A DNA stretch of 64,000 bases, taken from assembly GCA_038212275.1 (NCBI GenBank), contig JBBQUR010000003.1:128001-192000 (forward strand), read 5' to 3'. The translations under genes and the position numbers were made by a program. The DNA comes from Planctomycetota bacterium (GTDB taxonomy: Bacteria > Planctomycetota > B15-G4). A model generated the notes under the pieces. It did no database searches and had not been told where the DNA came from. It was given only the letters and a program-made list of their open reading frames with translations. Within the stretch, counting starts at the first letter, position 1. Each line of letters starts with the position of its first letter. This document shows positions 38,891 to 55,753 of the stretch, piece by piece.

Positions 38891-39080
38891 TCGCGCGTGA
38901 GTCCCGCGCGACGCGCGGCGCACGGACATCGCTTGCGTCGCGCGCGGCTTGCGTGCTACCCCCCTCCCCGCATTCGGGCGCGAAGGTCTATCATTGTCCG
39001 TGCAGGTGGTGGCGTGTGGTGCTCGTGCGGCGTGCAGCGGGTGCGGCGTCGACGGCAGGTGTGGCGGAGCGGGAGGTCTC

Positions 39081-42000
39081 ATGGCAAAGCGGTTCACGGC
39101 GTGCCCTCAGTGCGGGCGTTCCTTCCAGGTGGATGAGGCGAACGCGGGTCGCCGCGCGCGCTGCGGCGCGTGCGCTCACGCCTTCGTGATCCGCTTCGAC
39201 GAGGCCGCGCCCTCTGCCTCCTCCGCGCCCTCCGCGCCGGACGATGCCGCAGCCCTCGCCGCCGCGCAGGCCGAAGCCGCGCAGCAGCGTGAACTGCTCG
39301 ATCAGGCACAGGTCGTGGCACAGCAGGCCATCGACGAGGCGCATGCCGAGGCCGATCGCCTGCGCGCCGAGCAAGACACCGAAGAACGCGCGCCAGGACG
39401 CGCGCCAGGACGCGCGCCAGGACGAGCGCCGGCGCGGGCCGTAGTCGGCTCGGAGCAGCGCGATGAGCTGGCGGCGCATGAACGTCAGGCCGCGACGCAG
39501 CTCGCTGCGATGGAGGCTGCGCAGCGCGCCGCTGCGGAGCGCGCGACGGCCGCCGAGGAGCGCGCCGCGGCCGCCGAGCATCGTGCGAGCGAGCTGGAAG
39601 ACGAGATTCACGACGCCGAGCATCAGCACGCCGAAATCGGCGTGGAGATCCGCCGGCTCGAGGAGCGCGCGCGCCAGCTGGCGGCACGCAGCGCCGAGGC
39701 CGAGCAGGAGCTCGAGCGCGGCGTCGAGCAGGCGCGCGGCACGATCGCCAAGTACACGTCCGCGAAGACGGCGCTCGCCGAGGTGGAGGCCGCGCGTGCG
39801 CGCAGCGAGCGCGCGCGGCACGATGCCGACGAGGCGCTGGCGGCGGCGCAGGCGGCACTGGAGTTGCTCGCGACGCGTCGCGCCGCGGAGGAGCAGCAGC
39901 TGGCCACGTTGCACGCGCAGCGACAGGCGGCGATCGAACAGTCGCAGGCGGCGAGCGCGACGGTCGCCGAAGCGGAGTCCACGGTCGAGGCGACGCGCGC
40001 GCAGGCCGCCGCGCTGGCGGGTCGCGTGCGCGCCGCCGAGGCGCGGCTCGCGGACGTCGAAGCGGCCGCGCAGCTTCGCGAGGCGCAGCTCGAAACCTCC
40101 GTGCACCAGCGCACCGAAGCGCTGGAAGGCGAAGCGCGCCAGCGCACCGAAGCGCTGGAAAGCCACGCGAGCCAGCGCGTCGAAGCGCTCGAGAGCGAAG
40201 CGCGCGAGCGCGCCGAATCCCTGCAGAATGAGGCGCAACGGCGCGTGGATCTGCTGGAGAGCGAGGCGAAGGAGCGGCGCGAGCACGCCACCGTGCTGCA
40301 GCAGCAGGTGCGGCTGTGGAAGGACCAGCTTGCGGAGTTGCAGCACGCGGTGCAGAGCCAGCGCAGCGCTGCCGACGCGCGCCTCGCGAAAACGTCCGCC
40401 GACGCCGACACCGCCGAGCAGCGCCGTGCGCAGCTCGAACAGGCCTGCGCCGCACTGAGCGCGCAGTCCGCGACCGCGAGCGAGGCGCTCGCCGCCCTGC
40501 AGGCCGGCGCCGCGGAGGCGGAGGCCGCTTGGGAGGCGGCCAAGCAGGCGCGCGCCGCCGCGGAGCACCGGACGCAGCTGGCCGAGCAGCGCGCCGCCGA
40601 GCTGGCGCAGCAGGAGCGCGAACGCCTCGCCGCGCTGCAGGGCCAGGAGCACGCCGCCGAAGAGCGCCTCGCCGCACGTCGCGCCGAGGCCGAGTCCCTC
40701 GAGGCAGCCGCCGATGCGGCACGGGTCGCGCTGGCGGAGCTCGAGCAGCAGGGCCAGCAGCAGCGCGCCAGCACGCAGGCCTCCGTCGCCGCGTGGAACG
40801 AGGAGCAGCAGTCGCTCGCGCAGCGTCGCGCGCAGGAGAGCCAGGCCGCCGCGCAGCGCCTGTCGGCCGTGGAATCGGCGCACGCCGAGCGTCTCGCCGC
40901 GCTGCAAGCGGCGCACGAGCAGCATCGCGACGTGCAGGCGCGCGTTCACGAGGCGGAGCAGCGTGTCGCGGACCTGGCCGAGCGCGCGCGCGTCGGCGAC
41001 GAACAGTGCCTCGCCACGCAGGCGCGCGCCGACGAGCACGCCGTGCGCGTGCAGCGCCTGACGGAGCAGGCCGAGACGCTGACGCTCCAGTCGCGCGAGA
41101 TGATCGAGCGCTATCGCTCCGCGAAGGCCTCGCTGGCGGAGGCCCAGGCCAGCCAGCAGGCGGTGGAGGATCGGCGCGCGCGCACCGAGGCCGAGGCGGC
41201 GGCGCAGGCCGAGCGCGTCGCGGCCCTGATCACCGAGGCGCAGGGCGCCGAGACGGCTCGCACGGAGGCCGAGCGCGTGGCGCTCACGTGGAAGCACGAG
41301 GCCGACACGTGGCAGCAGCGCGCGCAGTCTTTGTCGGGCCAGGTCGAGCAGCTCTCGCAGCAGGCGACGGCGCAGCGCGCGGCGCAGGAGGCGGCGGCGG
41401 CGCGGTTCGCGCAGCAGGAGCGCGAGGCGCAGCAGCGCGTCGCGGCGCTGGCGGGCCGCGCGGCATCTACCGAGCAGAGCCTGACGGAGCATCGCGACCA
41501 GCTGGACCTGGCGCGTGCGGCGCTGGCCGCCGTCGAGGCGCGCGCGGCCGAGTCGCAGGCGCGCGCGGAGGATCTCGCTGCCGAGATCGAAGCGGCCGAG
41601 CAGCATGCCGGCGAGTTGACCTCCGCGGTGGCCGAGCAGCAGGCGCGGCTTGCGGAGCTGGACGCGTCGGTGAACACCGCGAGCGGTCGGCTCGAGGAAC
41701 GGCGTCGCGGCATTCACGAGGCGACGGCGTCGGCTGCCGCGCTGGCGCAGCGGCTGGCCCAGGCCGAGGCGCAGCTCTCGGCCGCGGAAGCCCTGCGCGC
41801 GGAGCAGGAGCGCGCCGCCGAGGAGGCCTCGGCGGCCTCACGCAGCGCGAGCGCGCACGCCCGCGCCGCGCAGGCCGAGGCGCTGGAGGCCACGGCGCGC
41901 ACCGCGGCCGCCCGCGAGGAGACGGGGGCGCTGACGGCGCGTTCCTACGAGTTGCGCGATCAGCTCACGGCGCTGGCGGCGCAGGCCGAGGCCGCGGCAG

Positions 42001-43850
42001 GTTCGGCGCGCGAGGCCGAGGTGCGCGCGGACGAAGCTCGTCAGCGGCAGTCGGAGGCCGAGGCCCGCATCGAGGCGGCCGACCAGCGCGTCTCCACCAA
42101 GCTGGCCGAAGCGCGCGGCGTCATCGAGGCGCGGCGCGCCGAGCTGGCCGAGATGCAGGCGCAGCGCCAGGAGCTCGAACAGACCAACGCGTCGCTGCGC
42201 TCCGAGGGCGACAGCCTCTCGCATGACGTGGCCTCCGTGCGCGACGCGCTGGCGACGCTGGACCGCCAGCTCTCGGCGCTCTCCACGGAGCGCGCCAATG
42301 CCGAGTCGGGTCGCGCGCGGCTGGTCCAGGAAGTGGCCGAGCTGCACGCGCAACGACAGGCGGCGCAGGAGGCGCTCGCGCAGGCCGTCACGCAGGCGCA
42401 GGCGGGGGACAACCAGTTGCGCGAACTGCGCGTCGCGCTGGCCACCATGGCCGCCGGGCGCGAAGCGGCCGCACGCGACGCGGAAGCGGAGCAGGAGGCG
42501 CGCGGCCTGGTCGCCGCGCAGGAGCGCGCCGCGCACGAGGATGCGATCGCCGCGCTGGACCGCCGCGCCGCCGAGGCGCGCACGCTGCTCGGCCAGCTCA
42601 ACGTGCAGAAGCGGGACGTCGAGGCCGAACTCGTGCGCACGTCGGAGCTGCTCTCGGCCACGCGCCACACGCACGAGGAGGCGCTGGGAAGCCTGGAGCG
42701 CACGCGCCACGAGCAGGCCGAGCTCGTGGGCCGCGCTCGGCAGGACACGGAGCGACTGCTCGCGCAGCGCCAGGAGCAGGAGAGCCGGCTCGCGCAGATC
42801 GCGCAGGAGCAGGCCGGGCGCGTGGAGGCCGTCGCGGCGCTGGAGCTGCAGCGCACGCGCATGGAGCAGCAGGTCGCGGTGCTGGCCGCGCGCGAGGGCG
42901 AGGTTCGCGGCGAACTGGAAGCGCGGCGTGGCCGGCTCGAAGCGCTGCGCGCCGAAGTGGCCAGGGTGGAGGACCACCTCGTCGTCGCGACGGGGCAGCT
43001 TGCGGAGACCGAGGCGCGGCAGGCCGAGGTCGGCGCGCTGGTGGAGCACACGCGGCGCGGGCACGAGCAGCTTGTCGCGCGCGCGGCGGATGAAGGTCGC
43101 CGCATGAAGGACGAGAAGGAGCGCCTCGAGCAGCAGCTGGCCGAGCTGCGCACGCGCACGGCCGAGCAGGCCGACGAATCGGCGGGCCGCATCAAGCGCC
43201 TCGCCGAGCAGCAGGGCGGGCTCGAGGCGCGCTGCGGCGAACTGCGGCACGAGCTGGACGCGCTCATCGCGCGCGGCCAGGAGGCGCGCACGGAGCTGGC
43301 CGAGCTGGACGCGCAGACGGTGGAGGCGCGCGAGGCCTCCGAGCAGAACATGGCGCAGGCGCGCAAGGCACGCGAGGCGCTCGTCGCCATCCGGCAGGAG
43401 CTGGCCGACCATGAGCTGGTGGCGCGCGAGACGATGCGCCGGCTGGCGGCCGCGGAAGAGAAGCGCCGGCAGGCCATCGAGGAGCGGCTGGAGCTGGAAG
43501 GACGCACGCGCGCCCAGCGGCTCGAGGCCGAAGATGCGCTGCGCGTCGCGAAGGAGCGCCAGGCCGCCGCTCAGAAGGCCCAGGCGCAGTTCCTGCAGAA
43601 GATCAACGAGGATCGCGAGGAGGCCCAGGCGCGGGTCAAGGCCGCGGGCGATGCGATGGCCGCGGCGCTGGCCGCACAGCGCCAGGCCAGCGACCGCTCC
43701 ATCGAGGAGCGCCGCCGCGTGCAGGCCGAGCTGGACGAGGCCACGCGCAAACTGGAGGAGTCCGAGCGCGTGGCCCGCGAGATCTACGAGGGTATCCGCA
43801 AGGTCCAGAAGGAGCGCGCGACGGAGCTGGAGATTCCCGACAGCATGTAG
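39081..43850 (+). CDS. 1,589-aa protein: N-terminal Zn-ribbon (MJ0042-like CxxC..CxxC) followed by a very long coiled-coil
   Basis: GGAGG RBS; CPQC..RARCGAC; A/E/R/Q/L-rich and nearly Pro-free over about 1,450 aa; no TM segment or P-loop seen. Confidence 0.85.
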   Translation: MAKRFTACPQCGRSFQVDEANAGRRARCGACAHAFVIRFDEAAPSASSAPSAPDDAAALAAAQAEAAQQRELLDQAQVVAQQAIDEAHAEADRLRAEQDTEERAPGRAPGRAPGRAPARAVVGSEQRDELAAHERQAATQLAAMEAAQRAAAERATAAEERAAAAEHRASELEDEIHDAEHQHAEIGVEIRRLEERARQLAARSAEAEQELERGVEQARGTIAKYTSAKTALAEVEAARARSERARHDADEALAAAQAALELLATRRAAEEQQLATLHAQRQAAIEQSQAASATVAEAESTVEATRAQAAALAGRVRAAEARLADVEAAAQLREAQLETSVHQRTEALEGEARQRTEALESHASQRVEALESEARERAESLQNEAQRRVDLLESEAKERREHATVLQQQVRLWKDQLAELQHAVQSQRSAADARLAKTSADADTAEQRRAQLEQACAALSAQSATASEALAALQAGAAEAEAAWEAAKQARAAAEHRTQLAEQRAAELAQQERERLAALQGQEHAAEERLAARRAEAESLEAAADAARVALAELEQQGQQQRASTQASVAAWNEEQQSLAQRRAQESQAAAQRLSAVESAHAERLAALQAAHEQHRDVQARVHEAEQRVADLAERARVGDEQCLATQARADEHAVRVQRLTEQAETLTLQSREMIERYRSAKASLAEAQASQQAVEDRRARTEAEAAAQAERVAALITEAQGAETARTEAERVALTWKHEADTWQQRAQSLSGQVEQLSQQATAQRAAQEAAAARFAQQEREAQQRVAALAGRAASTEQSLTEHRDQLDLARAALAAVEARAAESQARAEDLAAEIEAAEQHAGELTSAVAEQQARLAELDASVNTASGRLEERRRGIHEATASAAALAQRLAQAEAQLSAAEALRAEQERAAEEASAASRSASAHARAAQAEALEATARTAAAREETGALTARSYELRDQLTALAAQAEAAAGSAREAEVRADEARQRQSEAEARIEAADQRVSTKLAEARGVIEARRAELAEMQAQRQELEQTNASLRSEGDSLSHDVASVRDALATLDRQLSALSTERANAESGRARLVQEVAELHAQRQAAQEALAQAVTQAQAGDNQLRELRVALATMAAGREAAARDAEAEQEARGLVAAQERAAHEDAIAALDRRAAEARTLLGQLNVQKRDVEAELVRTSELLSATRHTHEEALGSLERTRHEQAELVGRARQDTERLLAQRQEQESRLAQIAQEQAGRVEAVAALELQRTRMEQQVAVLAAREGEVRGELEARRGRLEALRAEVARVEDHLVVATGQLAETEARQAEVGALVEHTRRGHEQLVARAADEGRRMKDEKERLEQQLAELRTRTAEQADESAGRIKRLAEQQGGLEARCGELRHELDALIARGQEARTELAELDAQTVEAREASEQNMAQARKAREALVAIRQELADHELVARETMRRLAAAEEKRRQAIEERLELEGRTRAQRLEAEDALRVAKERQAAAQKAQAQFLQKINEDREEAQARVKAAGDAMAAALAAQRQASDRSIEERRRVQAELDEATRKLEESERVAREIYEGIRKVQKERATELEIPDSM

Positions 43851-43974: not shown

Positions 43975-44050
43975 GGGCAGATAGCTCAGCTGGTAGAGCA
44001 CTGCACTGAAAATGCAGGTGTCCCCGGTTCGATTCCGGGTCTGCCCACCA
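43975..44050 (+). tRNA. tRNA-Phe (GAA)
   Basis: 76-nt cloverleaf: GGGCAGA acceptor, D-loop AGCTGGTA, anticodon arm CTGCA-CTGAAAA-TGCAG, GGTTCGATTCC, encoded CCA. Confidence 0.98.
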
Positions 44051-45050: not shown

Positions 45051-45083
45051 GGTCAGCGGGTCAGCGGGTCAGCTGGTCAGCGG
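45051..45083. repeat. 8-bp repeat ggtcagc(g/t) x4 between convergent genes
   Basis: Directly visible. Confidence 0.75.
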
Positions 45084-47629
45084 GCCGTCAGCTTCAGGCC
45101 GTTGCTCGCGGCCAGTCCGACCGGACCGTGGGCATCGACGAGCCAGGCCTGTGTCCAGATCGGCGTGCCCGCCGGCACGCCGGCCGGCCAGGTCGCCGGG
45201 AACACGGCGTGGCCGCCGGGCGCTGTCTCGAACGTGATGAGCAGCTGCGGCACGGGAACCATGACGCCGCCGCGGAAGGCCGTGAAGGCAGGCGTCGCGC
45301 CGATCACGAGCGCCGCCGCCGCCGGGAACGCGGCGCTGGACAGCGCGAGCTGCACGGGCGTGGCCGGCAGGAGCAGTCCGGCGCCCTGCAGTCCGGGTAC
45401 GCCATGGATGCCGGCGAGGCCGAACCCGACGTCGAGGAATGGTTGCTCCGGCGAGCGACTCCGGAATGCAGTGACCGACCGTGCGTTGTGTTGCGAGTTG
45501 GTGACCGCGAGGTCGGGGTGCCCGTCGCCGTCCAGGTTGCCGACGGCGATGCCGAAGGTCTGCAGCTGCGCCGCGAAGAACTCGTGTGTCGTCCAGTGCA
45601 TCGCGCCGTCGTTCACGAGCAGCTCGGCGGAACTGTGGCCGACATCGGGCACCGCGAGGTCGCCGTAACCGTCGCCGTCGAAGTCGGCGATGGCGATCGA
45701 TGATGCGATGCTCGACGTGGGCCAGCTCGTCGGCGTGTTGAGGCCGCCAGTGCCGGTGGCGAGGAACACGTGCACCAGTGCCAAGGCGCTGTCCGCGATC
45801 GCGACGTCCGCCACGCCGTCGGCATTGATGTCGGCGGCGGCAATCGCGCCGGCACTGCCGGGAACCGTGGCGAGGATCGGCAACCCGAACGAGCCGTCGG
45901 CGTTCCCCGGGTACACCGCGATCGACGGCGGGACCGCGAGGCTCACGACGGCGTCGGGCACGCCGTCGCCGGTCACGTCGGCGACGGCCACGCCGGCGGG
46001 CGTGCCCGCGAGCGGGCTCGTCTGCTCGGGCAGAAACGCGCCGGTGCCGCCGGTCGTCGTGGCGCGGCGGACCGACAGCAGGCCGGACGCCTTGCTCACC
46101 GTGAGCAGGTCGGCATGCCCGTCGAAGTTCAGGTCGGCCACCTCGAAGGCGGTCGGCGACCCCGACATCGGCCAGTTCGTCGCTGCGAGGAGCGCACCTG
46201 TGCCGACACCGGGATGGATCGTGATGCCGGTCGCGATGCCGATGGACGCAACGTCCGCATGCGCGTCGCCGGTGAGTTCGGCGATCCGCACGTCGCGCGT
46301 GCCGATGCCCAGTTTGGTGGTCAGCGTCGAGGTGAGGACACCTGTGCCGTCGTTGCGCACCACGGTGAGACCGCCGTAGTCGTAGATGTCCTCGCCCGCA
46401 CAGGCCACGACCAGCTCGTCGCGTCCGTCACCGGTGAGGTCGCCGAACGCGACGCCCAATGGCTTCACCAGTACGGAGGCGCGTTGCGCCGCGGTGAAGG
46501 ACCGGACGCCGACCTGCCGCAGGACGTTCACGCCCGTCGAGTAGCTGGCGACCAGCAGGTCGACGAGGCCGTCGCCGTTCACGTCGCCCGTGGACATGCC
46601 GTAGGCGCCGGCGCCCACGACCAGCCCGAGCGGTGCGGTGAACGCGCCGTTGCCGGTGCCGAAGGCGACGTGAGCCGTCGCCGAGAAAAGGGACACGCCT
46701 GCATCGGTGGCGGCGAGGTCGAGGAGGCCATCGCCGTCGAGGTCGGCGACCTCGATCTCGAACGGCGAACTGCCGGTGCCGATCAGAGTGATGGCGCCGA
46801 AACCTCCGGCGCCGTCGCCGAGCATCACGCCGAGGGAGTTACTTGAGAGGACGGCGAGCGCGAGGTCGACCTTGCCGTCCTGATTGAGGTCCGCAGCTGC
46901 AGCCGTGAGCGGGCCGTAGCCTGCCGGATGCGTGACCGGCGCGAGGAACACGCCGCCGCTGTTGAGCGCGACGGAGATCTGGTGCGAGAACTGGTCCACC
47001 GAGACGAGGTCGAGGTCGAGATCGCCATCCAGGTCGCACAGCACGACATCGGAGGGGTGCTGCCCGACCGCCCAGGCCTGCGCCGTGACGAAGTTGCCGG
47101 CACCGTCGCCGTGCAGCACCGAGACCGTGTCGCCGTAGTAGTTGGCCACCGCGACATCGACGAAACCGTCACCATTCATGTCGCCGCTGGCGAGTTCCCG
47201 AGGTCCCGTGCCCACTGGAAACGAAGTCTTTCCCAGCAATCCGCCAGTTCCGTCACCGAGGCGCACCGTGATCGTGTCGGCGTTCGCGTCGGCGCTGATC
47301 ACGTCGGGGCGGCCGTCGCCGTTGACGTCCACGACATCGATGTCACTCGCACCGGCGCCCATCGGATAGTCCGCGCCGCCAGCGAATCCGCCCACGCCAT
47401 TGCCGAACCGGATCGAGACCGTCCCGGCGCCAGCGCTCGCCGAGACGAGATCGAGGCGCCGATCGCCGTTCAGGTCGATGGCCACGACATCACTCGCACC
47501 GCCCGTCAGCTGGATGGTCGAGCCATCGAGCAGAGGCACCGCCGTGATCTGCGCCATGACCGGCGACGGGCAGGCGAAGGCGGCAACGATGCAGAGGAGG
47601 GACATGTCGAGCGTGTGAATGTGTGCCAT
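45077..47629 (-). CDS. Secreted FG-GAP/VCBS repeat (beta-propeller) protein with distinct C-terminal domain
   Basis: Signal peptide; about 13-14 D(L/V/F)(N/D/T)GDGxxD repeats; unique C-terminal ~120 aa. Confidence 0.92.
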   Translation of the reverse strand: MAHIHTLDMSLLCIVAAFACPSPVMAQITAVPLLDGSTIQLTGGASDVVAIDLNGDRRLDLVSASAGAGTVSIRFGNGVGGFAGGADYPMGAGASDIDVVDVNGDGRPDVISADANADTITVRLGDGTGGLLGKTSFPVGTGPRELASGDMNGDGFVDVAVANYYGDTVSVLHGDGAGNFVTAQAWAVGQHPSDVVLCDLDGDLDLDLVSVDQFSHQISVALNSGGVFLAPVTHPAGYGPLTAAAADLNQDGKVDLALAVLSSNSLGVMLGDGAGGFGAITLIGTGSSPFEIEVADLDGDGLLDLAATDAGVSLFSATAHVAFGTGNGAFTAPLGLVVGAGAYGMSTGDVNGDGLVDLLVASYSTGVNVLRQVGVRSFTAAQRASVLVKPLGVAFGDLTGDGRDELVVACAGEDIYDYGGLTVVRNDGTGVLTSTLTTKLGIGTRDVRIAELTGDAHADVASIGIATGITIHPGVGTGALLAATNWPMSGSPTAFEVADLNFDGHADLLTVSKASGLLSVRRATTTGGTGAFLPEQTSPLAGTPAGVAVADVTGDGVPDAVVSLAVPPSIAVYPGNADGSFGLPILATVPGSAGAIAAADINADGVADVAIADSALALVHVFLATGTGGLNTPTSWPTSSIASSIAIADFDGDGYGDLAVPDVGHSSAELLVNDGAMHWTTHEFFAAQLQTFGIAVGNLDGDGHPDLAVTNSQHNARSVTAFRSRSPEQPFLDVGFGLAGIHGVPGLQGAGLLLPATPVQLALSSAAFPAAAALVIGATPAFTAFRGGVMVPVPQLLITFETAPGGHAVFPATWPAGVPAGTPIWTQAWLVDAHGPVGLAASNGLKLTAR

Positions 47630-47844
47630 GCGCCTGGGATCCTTCGAGGGAATGCAGTGAGTGCCCCATCGAGAGTTCGCAAATTCAGGACCGATGCGGA
47701 GCGGCCTGAACGAACAGCCGTATCGCGCTCATGGCCATGCGGGAATTCGCTTCCGATGTGAACTCACTGACATGCGACGCGCGCCCGCACGGGTGTTACT
47801 TCCTCTGGTTCACACACGAGTTCATTCCCCGAGGCCAGACTTCC

Positions 47845-48975
47845 ATGCGTCCCATTCTCGCCCTCCTCCTGTTGTTCGCATCCGTTCCCGTCGTGTCCGC
47901 GCAGACGGCCTTCACTGCGCAGCTGACTGGCAACGCCAACGTTCCTCCGGTCACGACGGCCGCCAAGGGTGTCGCGCTCGCCGTGCTCGATCCCGCGACG
48001 TCGACCGTGGACTACCAGGCCGACTTCACCGGGCTGGCGGGCAGCGTGATCGCGGCCGAGGTGCGCCTCGGGGCGGTCGGAACGAGCGGGCAAGTCATCT
48101 TCGCCCTGGCCGGCGTCGCTCCGCATTTCGAAGGCAAATCGCCCGCACTCACCGCGAGCCAGGTCGCGGAGCTGCAGGCAAATCACGCCTACCTCACCGT
48201 CCGCACCACGACCTGGCCGGGCGGGCAGGTCCGCGGCCAGCTCACGCTGGGAGCGAACCAGTTCTATGCGTTGCTGACCGGCGGGAAGGCCGTCCCGCCG
48301 TCACCGACGACGATCGTCGGGTACGCCAACTTCGGGCTGCTCAGCAACGGGGTGCAGCTCACCTGCATGATCCACGCGTTCTCTGGCGGCGGAACCGCGG
48401 TGCTCAGGCTGGGCGGGCCGGGCAGCACCGGCACGACGATCGCGGCGATTCCCTTCGACTTCGCGGGCGTGTGGCACGCCGTCGTTGCGCTCGATCCTGT
48501 CCGCATCGAGATGCTGAAGTCGGGACTCGTCTACGTCGAGGTCACGTCCACGTCGGGGACCGAGGTCGTCCGCGGGCAGTTGAACAGCACCTTCGCGCAG
48601 TTCGGCGCCGGCTCCGGCAAGTCGCAACCACCAGTCTTCACGGCGGCCGGCACTCCATCCCCGAACTCCTACGTCTCGCTGACGCTCAAGGGCGGCGCGC
48701 CGTTCTCCTTCGCGCTCCTGCTCGTCTCCCCGAATGCCGGGCTCGTGAACGCGGCGGGCTGCCCGCTCTACGTGTCGTTGCCCGCGGCGCTCACGCTTGT
48801 CGTCCCGCTCGATACCTACGGATCCGGGTATTTGTCGGTCGCCCAGCTCCCGGCGACGACCCCGACGCCGCTGTTCATCGAGTGCCAGGCGCTGTGTGCC
48901 GATGCCGCCGCAGCCAACGGGAAGTTCACGTCGAGCAACGGAGTGACCATCGGCATCTCGACCTTCCCCGACTGA
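47845..48975 (+). CDS. Secreted protein with two CHRD-like domains plus C-terminal domain
   Basis: Signal peptide (VSA/Q); FTAQLTGNANVPPVTT..YLTVRTTTWPGGQVRGQL and a second FYALLTGGKAVPP..VRGQL. Confidence 0.85.
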   Translation: MRPILALLLLFASVPVVSAQTAFTAQLTGNANVPPVTTAAKGVALAVLDPATSTVDYQADFTGLAGSVIAAEVRLGAVGTSGQVIFALAGVAPHFEGKSPALTASQVAELQANHAYLTVRTTTWPGGQVRGQLTLGANQFYALLTGGKAVPPSPTTIVGYANFGLLSNGVQLTCMIHAFSGGGTAVLRLGGPGSTGTTIAAIPFDFAGVWHAVVALDPVRIEMLKSGLVYVEVTSTSGTEVVRGQLNSTFAQFGAGSGKSQPPVFTAAGTPSPNSYVSLTLKGGAPFSFALLLVSPNAGLVNAAGCPLYVSLPAALTLVVPLDTYGSGYLSVAQLPATTPTPLFIECQALCADAAAANGKFTSSNGVTIGISTFPD

Positions 48976-52511: not shown

Positions 52512-54101
52512 TCAGTGCGCGCCCATCACGGTGGCGTAGCGGGAGTAGACCTCCAGCGTCAGTGCCAGGATTGCGGTCGAGTAGACCCGTCCCCCGGTGC
52601 TGCCCCACGGGTCGGGCTGAGGGTCCCAGCTGCCGCGCCGCTCGCCTTCCTTGTGCTGATGCCCGGCGATGGCCGGCAGGAGCGCCCGCTCCCAGGTCTT
52701 CCACGCGTCGCCGCCGACCTGGAAGAGCGCATAGCTGCCGTAGTACCAGAAGTAGAAGTCGCGCCGGCCCGGGAGCTCGTCGCTCCACAGCGGCGGCAGC
52801 GCGGCGATGGCGGCCGCGCCGCGCTTGACCATCTCCTGGTCGCCGGGCGCCTTCAGGTCCGGGTCCGCGAAGATGCGGCACAGCACGCCCACGGCCGTCA
52901 TCGACTGGCTCTGCGCGGCGGGCCACAGCGCCTCGCTGCCGGCCTCGCGCGCGGGGCGGCCTCCGCGGCTGGTGTAGCCGGTGATGCCGGTGTCCGGGTC
53001 CGTCATCTCGTCCAGGAAGGCCAGCGCGTCGCCAAGCGCGCGCTCGTCGATGCGCAGGCCGTACTTCTTCGCCACGGTCAGTGTCAGGATGGCCCAGCCC
53101 GTGACCGACATGTCGTTGGGCGTCGTGCTCATCTCGGGATGGAAGGGCCGGTAGCGCCACGCACCGCCCGGATTGCGGAGCGACGCGAGGTGCGCGAGGC
53201 CCCGTTCAGCCGGCGCGCGGAAGCGGAGGTCGCGGCCGGAGAGTTCCCAGACCTCCACCAGCGCGAGCGTCGCCAGCACGTGGTCGTAGGTGGATTGCGC
53301 CGAGGTCGGTGAGCCGAAGTTTCCGTCGGGCTGCTGCACGTTGACGAGGAAGCGCAAGCCATCGCGCACGGTGCGTGCGTGCTCGCCGTGGCGGTCCGTC
53401 TGACCGGCGCCCAGGAAGGCCAGCAGCGCGAGGCTGCTCACGCCGACGTCGAAGGCCGGACTGCCGGCGCCGTCGCAGAGCGTGTCGGCGCCGCGGTGGC
53501 CGCACTGCTCGTCGAAGGCGGCGCACGACCAGTGGCCGTCCGGCGACTGATGAGCCGCCAGCCACGCGAGCGCATCGGCGACCGGGCCGGCCACACGCGC
53601 GTCCGGCGCACCGCGACGGTGCGGGCCGCCGCCGCCGCCGTCGCCCTGGTTCAATCCACCGTCACCGGCGCCCAGCACGGAGTTGAGCCCGGCGCTGTCC
53701 CCGCCGCCGCCGGGAGGGGAATCGTCGGCCGCGTCACTGGCCGACTCGGTGTCGGGGGACGGCTGCTCGGTCAGCGTCGGGTCCTCGATCCGCGTGAGGT
53801 TCTCCTCGATGAGGCGCGGCTCGACGAGCGGCTCGAGCTGCGGCAGCAACTCGACATCGGGCAGCCGCTCGGCCACGAGCACGCGCGCGACCTGCAGCGA
53901 GGGCGCGGGCGCCGAGGTGGCGAAGGCCAGCAGCAACACCGCGTGCACGATGAGCGAGACGACGAGATACGGCGACTCGCGCAGCAGCTCGCGCAGCGCG
54001 TCCTCCAGGCTGCGCGGCGTCTGTTCCGCCGCGTGCAGGCCGTGCGCCTGCGTCTGTGCCGAGTCTCGACGGAGGACGTGCGAGCCGTGTTCGTGTGCCA
54101 T
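52512..54101 (-). CDS. Membrane-anchored prenyltransferase/squalene-oxidase-repeat (alpha/alpha-toroid) protein, paralog 1
   Basis: TM SPYLVVSLIVHAVLL; QW-like motifs ALAWLAAHQSPDGHW, LVNVQQPDGNF; YFWYYG; GSWDP; GGRVYSTA. Confidence 0.85.
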   Translation of the reverse strand: MAHEHGSHVLRRDSAQTQAHGLHAAEQTPRSLEDALRELLRESPYLVVSLIVHAVLLLAFATSAPAPSLQVARVLVAERLPDVELLPQLEPLVEPRLIEENLTRIEDPTLTEQPSPDTESASDAADDSPPGGGGDSAGLNSVLGAGDGGLNQGDGGGGGPHRRGAPDARVAGPVADALAWLAAHQSPDGHWSCAAFDEQCGHRGADTLCDGAGSPAFDVGVSSLALLAFLGAGQTDRHGEHARTVRDGLRFLVNVQQPDGNFGSPTSAQSTYDHVLATLALVEVWELSGRDLRFRAPAERGLAHLASLRNPGGAWRYRPFHPEMSTTPNDMSVTGWAILTLTVAKKYGLRIDERALGDALAFLDEMTDPDTGITGYTSRGGRPAREAGSEALWPAAQSQSMTAVGVLCRIFADPDLKAPGDQEMVKRGAAAIAALPPLWSDELPGRRDFYFWYYGSYALFQVGGDAWKTWERALLPAIAGHQHKEGERRGSWDPQPDPWGSTGGRVYSTAILALTLEVYSRYATVMGAH

Positions 54102-54187
54102 GCCACGGCTCTAGGCACACATGCGGCGCAGGCAACGCAAACGGGCGCGCTGTCACGCGGAACGGGACGCCGCCGCGCGGCGCGAAC

Positions 54188-55753
54188 TCAGTGCGCGCCG
54201 ATGACCGACTCGTAGCGGTAGAAGACCTCTAGGGTCAGGCAGAGGATCGCCGTCGAGTAGACGCGCCCGCCTTCGCTGCCCCACGGATCGACCTGCGGAT
54301 CCCAGCTTCCCTGCAGCTCGCCTTCCTTGTGCTGATGGTCCGCGATGGCGGGCAGCAGGGTCTTCTCCCACTCCTTCCACGGCTGCTTGCCGTACTGGTA
54401 CATGGCGTAGGTGCCGTAGTACCAGAAGTAGAAGTCACGCCGGCCGGGCAGGTTGTCGTTCCACACCGGGGGCAGCGCGGAGATCGCCTTGATGCCCAGC
54501 TCGATCATCTCCTTGTTGCCGGGACGCTCGAGCTTCGGGTCCGCAAAGATGCGGCAGAGCACGGCGACGGACGTCATGGACTGGGTGTCCGCGAGCGGCC
54601 ATTGCACATCCTTGCCGAAGCCGCGTGCGGCGCCGCCGCCCCGCGCGTAGTAGCCCGTGATGCCGCTGGTCGGGTCGGTCATCTCCTCGACGAAGAGCAA
54701 CGCGTCCTCGAGCGCGGCAGGTTCGAAAGGCAGGCCGTACTCGTGGGCCAGCGTCATCGCCAGGATGGCCCAGCCGGTCACCGACACGTCGTTCGGGTGC
54801 GCGGCCATCTCCGGGTGCGTGGCGGCGTAGCGCCACGCGGCACCCTTGTTGCGCAATCTGTACATGAAATTGAGCGCGTTCTTGGCCGGCGTCTCGAACA
54901 GGTGGTTCTTGGTGAGCGCGTAGGCCTCGACCATCGCCAGCGTGGCAATGATGTGGTCGTAGGTGTACTGGCCGAACTGCGCGTTGCCGAAGTTGCCGTC
55001 GGCCTGCTGGACCTCCACGAGGTAACGAAGCCCTGCCTTCACGGTCTTGGCGTACTTGCCTGTCTTGTCGGTGTTGTCGGCGCCGAGGAAGGCGAGCAGC
55101 GAGAGGCCGGTGCAGCCGACGTCGAACTGCGGGATGCCCGTGCCGTCGCAGATCGTGTCGTCGCCCTGCTTGCCGCACTCCTCGTCGAAGGCGGCGCACG
55201 ACCAGTGGCCGTCGTCGCTCTGGTGGTTCTTCAGCCACTTGAGCGCGTCGTCCACGGCCTTGTTCAGCGGCTCGCCGCCCGCCTTGCCGCCGCCCTTGCG
55301 GCGGCCACTCAGCTTGCCGAAGCCCGCGCCGCCGCCGCCGCCGACGCCGATCACGTCATTCAGGCCCGAGTTCTCGAACTCGCCCTTGCCCTGGTAGATG
55401 TCTTCCGAAGGGTCGACCTCGTCGTTGGTCTCGGTGGCGTCCGTCTCCGAAATCGTCGGCTCCTCGACGATCACCTTCTCCTTCTCTTCGGGTGGCGGCG
55501 GGGGTGGCGGCGGAGGCGGCAGCGCCTCGGTCGGGACCTCGTTGCTCGCCTTGATGATCTGCGTCGGGGCCTTCTTCGGGCCGTCGCTTCCGGAGGCGAA
55601 AGCGATCAGCAGCACCGCGTGGATGAGGATGGAGATGACGAGATACGGCGAGTCCCGCAGCAGTTGCCGCAGCGTGTCCTCGAAGGTCGCGGCCTCGGGA
55701 TGACCCGGGTTGTGGCTGTGCTGGGAGACCAGCTCGGGAATCGCATTGGCCAC
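54188..55753 (-). CDS. Membrane-anchored prenyltransferase/squalene-oxidase-repeat protein, paralog 2
   Basis: Same architecture with poly-Pro linker; ALKWLKNHQSDDGHW; long near-identical blocks shared with paralog 1. Confidence 0.87.
   Translation of the reverse strand: MANAIPELVSQHSHNPGHPEAATFEDTLRQLLRDSPYLVISILIHAVLLIAFASGSDGPKKAPTQIIKASNEVPTEALPPPPPPPPPPEEKEKVIVEEPTISETDATETNDEVDPSEDIYQGKGEFENSGLNDVIGVGGGGGAGFGKLSGRRKGGGKAGGEPLNKAVDDALKWLKNHQSDDGHWSCAAFDEECGKQGDDTICDGTGIPQFDVGCTGLSLLAFLGADNTDKTGKYAKTVKAGLRYLVEVQQADGNFGNAQFGQYTYDHIIATLAMVEAYALTKNHLFETPAKNALNFMYRLRNKGAAWRYAATHPEMAAHPNDVSVTGWAILAMTLAHEYGLPFEPAALEDALLFVEEMTDPTSGITGYYARGGGAARGFGKDVQWPLADTQSMTSVAVLCRIFADPKLERPGNKEMIELGIKAISALPPVWNDNLPGRRDFYFWYYGTYAMYQYGKQPWKEWEKTLLPAIADHQHKEGELQGSWDPQVDPWGSEGGRVYSTAILCLTLEVFYRYESVIGAH

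Follow-up and report, generated by a model that had tools for sequence, protein, structure and literature searches.

Two unrelated exported proteins encoded in a 64,000-nucleotide stretch of Planctomycetota DNA (contig JBBQUR010000003.1, positions 128,001 to 192,000; hereafter the window) end in homologous copies of the same domain. One of the proteins carries FG-GAP repeats and the other a CHRD domain. The window is part of contig C3 of a 4.65 Mb genome with 70% GC, which is 91% complete. The shared tail is a real, large and uncatalogued terminal domain of one Planctomycetota group. It is present in a single copy, at either terminus, on proteins with signal peptides, is low in charge, and in a survey within the phylum is limited to some Planctomycetota families. 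There is about an even chance that the domain is an uncleaved handle that attaches exported proteins to a cell-envelope component through non-covalent docking.

Homology of the two tails

The features of the two proteins, whose divergent layout in the sequence-only reading is confirmed by the open reading frames (ORFs) and Pfam, are as follows:

45077..47629, minus strand: gene of the exported FG-GAP repeat (beta-propeller) protein (ORF; Pfam FG-GAP_3, E 1e-74)
47552..47629, minus strand: predicted Sec signal peptide of the FG-GAP protein, cleaved between ..VMA and Q (identified by eye, no dedicated predictor)
45443..47551, minus strand: FG-GAP passenger region (Pfam PF13517, 13 stretches)
45080..45442, minus strand: shared terminal domain of the FG-GAP protein, core type, 121 residues (family hidden Markov model (HMM), E 9e-33)
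47845..48975, plus strand: gene of the exported CHRD protein, 376 residues (ORF; Pfam CHRD, E 5e-23)
47845..47901, plus strand: predicted Sec signal peptide of the CHRD protein, cleaved between ..VSA and Q (identified by eye)
47911..48243, plus strand: CHRD domain, residues 23-133 (Pfam PF07452, one stretch)
48589..48972, plus strand: shared terminal domain of the CHRD protein, divergent type, 128 residues (converged model, E 1e-16)

The FG-GAP protein has 850 residues counted from the first ATG, and an alternative ATG is located at 47602. The CHRD domain is followed by a second CHRD-like unit recognizable by eye only, Pfam having scored one stretch. The sequences of both proteins agree with the Sec-type signals previously assigned to them, with alanine before and glutamine after the cleavage site, and with the absence of a C-terminal helix. 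Neither tail matches a Pfam family at E <= 0.1, and neither matches NCBIfam.

The two tails had been described as alignable. A direct BLASTP comparison of one with the other is not significant (best E 1.2), but the relationship is recovered by profiles. The FG-GAP tail matches 90 ORFs of the genome, and the profile of these, from which the CHRD tail was left out, recovers that tail at E 3.2e-10. In the reverse test, the CHRD tail matches three ORFs, and the profile built from them missed the FG-GAP tail at E 1e-3. The tails are 26% identical in the family alignment. Their homology is real despite the non-significant pairwise alignment.

Copy number and placement of the domain

A converged model of 122 positions matches 136 of the 38,109 six-frame ORFs of the genome, some of them short fragments, and none of the reversed ORFs at E <= 1. 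The matches are within 10 residues of the stop in 132 cases. Genes (3,417) were called with a codon model of our own, and the last 150 residues of each were used for an iterative search, which added 27 divergent copies with 0-2 reversed matches per round. Applied to whole genes, the resulting broad model identifies the domain in 169 genes, about one gene in twenty, none of which contains two copies. The core copies have a median identity of 32%, vary in length, and share one invariant glutamine.

A scan of the proteome had been expected to return tens to hundreds of signal-peptide proteins, and it did. However, the domain is not always C-terminal, as had been supposed: 158 copies are C-terminal, ten are N-terminal, positioned right after the signal peptide, and one is internal. 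In a metallo-beta-lactamase-fold protein, a full-consensus copy directly follows the signal peptide (E 9e-40), indicating that a free C-terminus is not needed. The internal copy, also of full consensus, has 171 further residues behind it. N-terminal placement was seen again in four Kelch proteins from other sources. The gene at C9:46024-46770 (-) encodes 173 residues that comprise nothing but a signal peptide and a single divergent copy.

Passengers and composition

The passengers of 132 of the 136 ORFs were scanned against Pfam; the two window proteins, which were scanned separately, and two fragments were left out. By our own count, FG-GAP repeats are present in 33 of the 132 passengers, and 53 match no family at E 1e-6. 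The others include M10, M12 and S8 peptidases, sulfatases, LTD nucleases, beta-helices, Kelch and GSDH propellers, an ice-binding protein, SBBP, a di-haem peroxidase, an MtrC-like multiheme cytochrome and a PMT_2 glycosyltransferase. The domain is present in 34 of 52 FG-GAP-like ORFs; nine of the remaining 18 have an ASPIC/UnbV-like tail, as recognized by pattern. The MtrC-like cytochrome (L066:6668-9208 (-)) combines a Big_9 domain with the shared tail, and its sequence hints that it may be a surface electron-transfer protein.

A hydrophobic region followed by AxA and a glutamine after the cleavage site was found in 100 of 154 domain proteins and in 217 of 2,411 others (Fisher P 3e-58). A lipobox-like motif is present in none of the 154, compared with 97 of the 2,411 (Fisher P 0.004). 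The predicted mature N-terminus is glutamine very often (100/154, by pattern), which recalls the pyroglutamate Q-rule of Bacteroidota. A helix-like segment within the last 35 residues occurs in only two of the 154 proteins. The 12 positions upstream of 83 core copies contain no residue above 25% and no conserved cleavage motif.

The domain is poor in charged residues. Its median content of Asp, Glu, Lys and Arg is 6.9%, compared with 14.8% in its own passengers, and it is lower than that of the passenger in 113 of 114 proteins. The deficit is mostly one of Asp and Glu, the acidic residues having a median of 4.0%.

The inner-membrane PMT_2 glycosyltransferase, which has nine predicted membrane segments, ends in a core copy (L061:4303-6672 (+) and L233:1501-3972 (-)). 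The fusion is conserved, with 43% identity, in a second genus and was found in only two of 41 genomes. Two further multi-pass proteins ending in divergent copies are encoded at C30:25222-31277.

Predicted structure of the domain

The AlphaFold model calculated from a 134-row alignment is all-beta, with a predicted local distance difference test (pLDDT) score of 98.1. The predicted fold is an immunoglobulin (Ig)-like sandwich with an N-terminal arm and an FKGG hairpin. According to our own assignment of the strands to an Ig core, the extras over that core would be the arm at approximately residues 1-12 and the hairpin at residues 51-63.

Foldseek identified no match in the PDB at E <= 0.001. 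Its second row, the HPI surface layer (S-layer) protein of Deinococcus, has a non-significant E of 0.009, and further weak rows are a Wzt carbohydrate-binding domain and ML lipid-binding domains (E 0.005-0.03). In a wide structure comparison, the best neighbours are LILRB4, alpha-2-macroglobulin and complement C3, with Z of 8.0-8.5, root-mean-square deviations (rmsd) of 2.6-3.2 and 86-101 residues aligned. These generic Ig and macroglobulin (MG) domains are 5-19% identical to the domain and leave its residues 1-11 mostly unmatched. Since Z does not exceed 8.5, the similarity indicates a common arrangement of strands and not membership in the Ig or MG families. Residues 1054-1156 of PorU rank 30th among the generic Ig folds (Z 7.0, rmsd 3.2, 93 aligned). 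A sequence search of the PDB with the 134-row alignment returned two matches, with E of 0.6 and 1, both due to chance.

Distribution in the phylum and relationship to dockerins

None of the NCBIfam families matches more than one of 134 domain copies. A published description of the domain was not found in the literature searched, which was mostly open-access, and it may be mentioned in a supplementary table; the accessible part of bioRxiv 10.1101/817700, on a lineage that may carry the domain, contains neither the word 'secretion' nor 'FG-GAP'. The profile matches 18,203 protein clusters at 50% identity, and in all of the best 150 of these the protein ends at most 10 residues from the domain. 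The 30 nearest clusters in the ESM Atlas share no common Pfam family and are mostly from Planctomycetota; the nearest named ones are CHRD proteins at 0.80-0.83, which are leads only.

The domain is present in all 30 relatives of the same order, with from 6 to at least 143 matches each. Across an even phylum-wide sample, 64 of 301 Planctomycetota genomes have the domain, with presence being nearly all-or-none per family. The earlier proposal of a lineage-specific Ig-like sandwich on unrelated passengers is thus upheld by both the AlphaFold model and the survey. A genome from another family (G189, 2.32 Mb) has 24 copies, and two named contigs that contain the domain belong to Planctomycetota metagenome-assembled genomes. 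A Verrucomicrobia locus (L077) gave no score with the family HMM and was not counted.

At least five Dockerin_1 matches were found in 26 of the 301 genomes, and none of these 26 contains the domain. Domain-positive genomes have at most two dockerin matches each. The best homologues of the window FG-GAP protein in five dockerin-rich genomes correspond to three loci. Two of the loci were readable as far as their ends, which in both cases consist of dockerin-like twin repeats. This suggests, from a small sample, that the domain and dockerin-like modules are placed equivalently on FG-GAP proteins. Dockerin-rich genomes also encode homologues of the CHRD passenger and of a conserved surface protein, the ends of which were unreadable. 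In the genome studied here, one FG-GAP protein (C25:28411-30450 (+)) ends, as judged by eye, in a dockerin-like twin repeat and not in the domain.

Comparison with known sorting systems

The domain resembles the type A C-terminal domain (CTD) of the Bacteroidota type IX secretion system (T9SS), Por_Secre_tail (PF18962), in that both are Ig-like sandwiches which, in single copy and with low identity between copies, end many unrelated Sec-exported passengers. T9SS CTDs have 67-108 residues and little common sequence, and tolerate short C-terminal extensions, according to the accessible part of PMC11285876. In contrast, the planctomycete domain has approximately 120 residues, the additional arm and hairpin, no sequence match and no cleavage motif. 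It also occurs in N-terminal and internal positions and on a membrane enzyme. Because T9SS CTDs tolerate short extensions, a C-terminal extension alone is not decisive, and the N-terminal and membrane-bound copies carry more weight. The PorV family was not found in the genome, 91% complete, although the positive control matched. SprA_N, Peptidase_C25 and Por_Secre_tail also had no match in the genome, but the positive controls for these gave none either.

The similarity to type I dockerins (PF00404) is one of placement: both are small modules found at one or the other end of varied exported proteins, dockerin-like tails take the position of the domain on FG-GAP homologues of a domain-negative genome, and the distributions of the two in the phylum sample are complementary. 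However, the domain is an all-beta sandwich with few acidic residues, lacks the twin calcium-binding loops, and has no sequence match to dockerins.

PEP-CTERM with exosortase and GlyGly-CTERM with rhombosortase are many-to-one C-terminal tags of the exported proteins of a lineage, as described in the accessible parts of PMC1569441 and PMC3237569. The domain differs from them in being folded, instead of consisting of a motif, a membrane helix and a basic tail. The PEP-CTERM pattern is absent from the called genes, and exosortase (PF09721) was not found in the genome, its control matching in one genome. The domain belongs to none of the T9SS CTD, PEP-CTERM and dockerin systems. No described machinery was found for it, as the sequence-only reading had anticipated.

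Search for a partner

Candidate partners were sought by comparing the 2.32 Mb of G189 with this genome, which gave 982 one-to-one pairs. Big_5 was not found in this genome; Omp85 and secretin gave two and eight matches there, respectively, a type II secretion cluster among them. An operon at C6:123441-138758 (-), also seen at L085 and L086 and at L092 of G189, encodes PilM-like, ExbB-like and two ExbD-like proteins together with two divergent secretins and two TPR proteins; labels other than secretin and TPR are motif readings. The operon is possibly a proton-driven secretin machine, judging from these motifs. It was rejected as a specific partner since its secretin is phylum-wide (71 of 80 Planctomycetota genomes).

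Two other exported proteins were considered:

C14:70580-75079, minus strand: large lipoprotein with a YVTN-like C-terminal propeller (G189 copy at L121:14581-17526 (-))
C25:38152-40611, plus strand: conserved exported 770-residue protein without a Pfam match, adjoining domain genes in both genomes (G189 copy at L137:7580-9943 (+))

The lipoprotein family combines a Gly-rich linker and Ig-like domains with a conserved ..D[YF][YFW]xQ end, and its model has a pLDDT of 82.9. Its only Pfam match is Lactonase, below the whole-family level (E 1e-7). The C-terminal part is also encoded at L223:862-3603 (-). The lipoprotein was found in 60 of the 301 genomes, nearly the same set as for the domain: 57 contain both the domain and the lipoprotein, seven the domain only, three the lipoprotein only and 234 neither. 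The three lipoprotein-only genomes have weak matches to the propeller part, and four of the seven domain-only genomes hold just one or two domain copies. Three domain-only genomes belong to one family (f72). The agreement is favoured by the lipoprotein alignment having been built from domain-positive genomes.

In a panel of 80 genomes, the lipoprotein is present in 35 of 38 domain-rich and three of 36 domain-negative genomes. Two unannotated exported control proteins are found in 33 and 36 of the 38, and in one and four of the 36, respectively. Since the controls have nearly the same profile, the agreement between lipoprotein and domain mostly reflects shared ancestry. Phylogenetic profiling, which had been proposed as a search for co-occurring machinery, yielded a lipoprotein that tracks the domain in 57 of 64 genomes, but two controls track it almost as well. 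The only edge of the lipoprotein is its absence from three panel genomes with one or two copies and few candidates, in which the controls are present in two and three. The YVTN-propeller lipoprotein is a weak candidate for a protein receptor. The control found in 33 domain-rich genomes and one negative genome is the 770-residue protein, itself a partner candidate.

Proposed docking to the cell envelope and alternative functions

As a docking handle, the domain would act after export. The passenger would cross the inner membrane by Sec and fold in the periplasm, and surface cargo would cross the outer membrane by a separate route, likely a type II-like secretin system. The domain would remain on the mature protein and bind the envelope through its apolar, acid-poor surface. 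In the model, the N-terminal arm and the FKGG hairpin are predicted to cover one face of strands that are apolar on both sides. If the domain does dock, its partner is about as likely to be a protein receptor as anything else, and somewhat less likely to be outer-membrane lipid or lipopolysaccharide (LPS). Whether such a handle is used where other Planctomycetota use dockerins appears evenly balanced.

In favour of docking are the single terminal copy at either end of the protein, the full-consensus copy behind a signal peptide, the lack of a cleavage motif, the enrichment of signal peptides without lipoboxes, the low charge, the complementary distribution of dockerins together with the two swapped FG-GAP tails, and the core copy on a glycosyltransferase of two genera. 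Several observations count against it. The C-terminal placement of 93% of the copies and the conserved last strand are equally expected of an export signal, and a glycosyltransferase already embedded in the membrane needs no anchor. Cohesin (PF00963) was not found in the genome, 91% complete, its control matching in two genomes; no scaffold with internal repeats common to this genome and G189 was found, and the search gave no specific docking partner. The mutual exclusion of the domain and dockerins, with P 0.0015 by genome, is not significant by family (P 0.09 with 13 families, approximately 0.07 with 14), kin not being independent. The Pfam dockerin cut-off is passed by only one of the two swapped FG-GAP tails. 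Signal peptides and lipoboxes were scored by our own pattern rules and not by a trained predictor, and a looser signal-peptide rule discriminates poorly (111 of 136 versus 517 of 1,014).

The domain could instead be a signal for outer-membrane export that is recognized by its shape, as the T9SS CTD is, and acts through an undescribed translocon or a type II secretion system, although we consider this unlikely. The passengers, among them FG-GAP propellers (33/132), M10, M12 and S8 peptidases, LTD nucleases, the ice-binding protein, SBBP and the MtrC-like cytochrome, resemble T9SS cargo. The single copy, C-terminal in 158 of 169 genes and near the protein end in all of the best 150 cluster matches, fits such a signal, as do the eight secretin matches. 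So do the Ig-like fold, with its match to PorU 1054-1156 (Z 7.0), and the low identity and tolerated short extensions of T9SS CTDs given in the accessible part of PMC11285876. However, core-type copies are also N-terminal, internal and attached to a multi-pass membrane enzyme, PorV was not found with a working control, and there are only two Omp85 matches. Furthermore, the two-secretin operon is phylum-wide, and the match to PorU comes 30th in a list of generic Ig folds. Of the export-or-attachment tag envisaged from the sequence, the export part is therefore weakened by the placement of these copies and the lack of a cleavage site, whereas attachment fits better and is what the docking handle would provide.

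An accessory module that binds a glycan, a lipid or a substrate surface, or assists folding, and was spread by domain shuffling without a role in sorting or retention is improbable. The weak Foldseek rows to Wzt and ML domains and the presence of the domain on glycosyltransferases point in this direction. Accessory modules are usually tandem and internal, whereas 168 of 169 genes have the domain once and at a terminus; moreover, its passengers act on unrelated substrates and no structural match reaches E 0.001. Slightly less probable still is self-association, in which approximately 170 proteins would tile a common coat or matrix on the envelope with their differing passengers outward: the apolar, charge-poor domain, the one copy per protein, the gene for a signal peptide and a divergent copy alone (173 residues), the lack of a dedicated partner and the Deinococcus S-layer row (E 0.009 only) agree with it, but that row is not significant, and a median identity of 32% within one genome together with variable length is hard to fit to one lattice.

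Other genes of the window

A tRNA-Phe(GAA) gene is located at 43975-44050 (+), approximately 1 kb away from where the FG-GAP gene ends. It is preceded by a 1,633-residue ORF at 38949-43850 (+) that is coiled-coil-like, rich in Ala, Glu, Gln and Arg, and has two CxxC pairs near its start. Two tandem paralogues of approximately 525 residues at 52512-55753 (-) resemble prenyltransferase/squalene-oxidase repeat proteins.

Implications for envelope biology of Planctomycetota

The domain is represented by at least 18,000 distinct clusters and by approximately one in 20 genes of this genome, yet has neither a Pfam nor an NCBIfam model. One model would predict the exported proteome of a large Planctomycetota group, with peptidases, nucleases and a multiheme cytochrome among the proteins covered. 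It is possible, though doubtful, that an undescribed surface-display system in one large Planctomycetota clade uses the domain as its address tag, with a dedicated receptor or translocon, possibly the YVTN lipoprotein, replacing the dockerin, PEP-CTERM and T9SS routes of other lineages. With the domain, it becomes testable how enzymes are retained at the envelope of these bacteria in the absence of sortases, cohesins or a detected T9SS. Should there be a dedicated receptor or translocon, it would constitute a new route of protein display.

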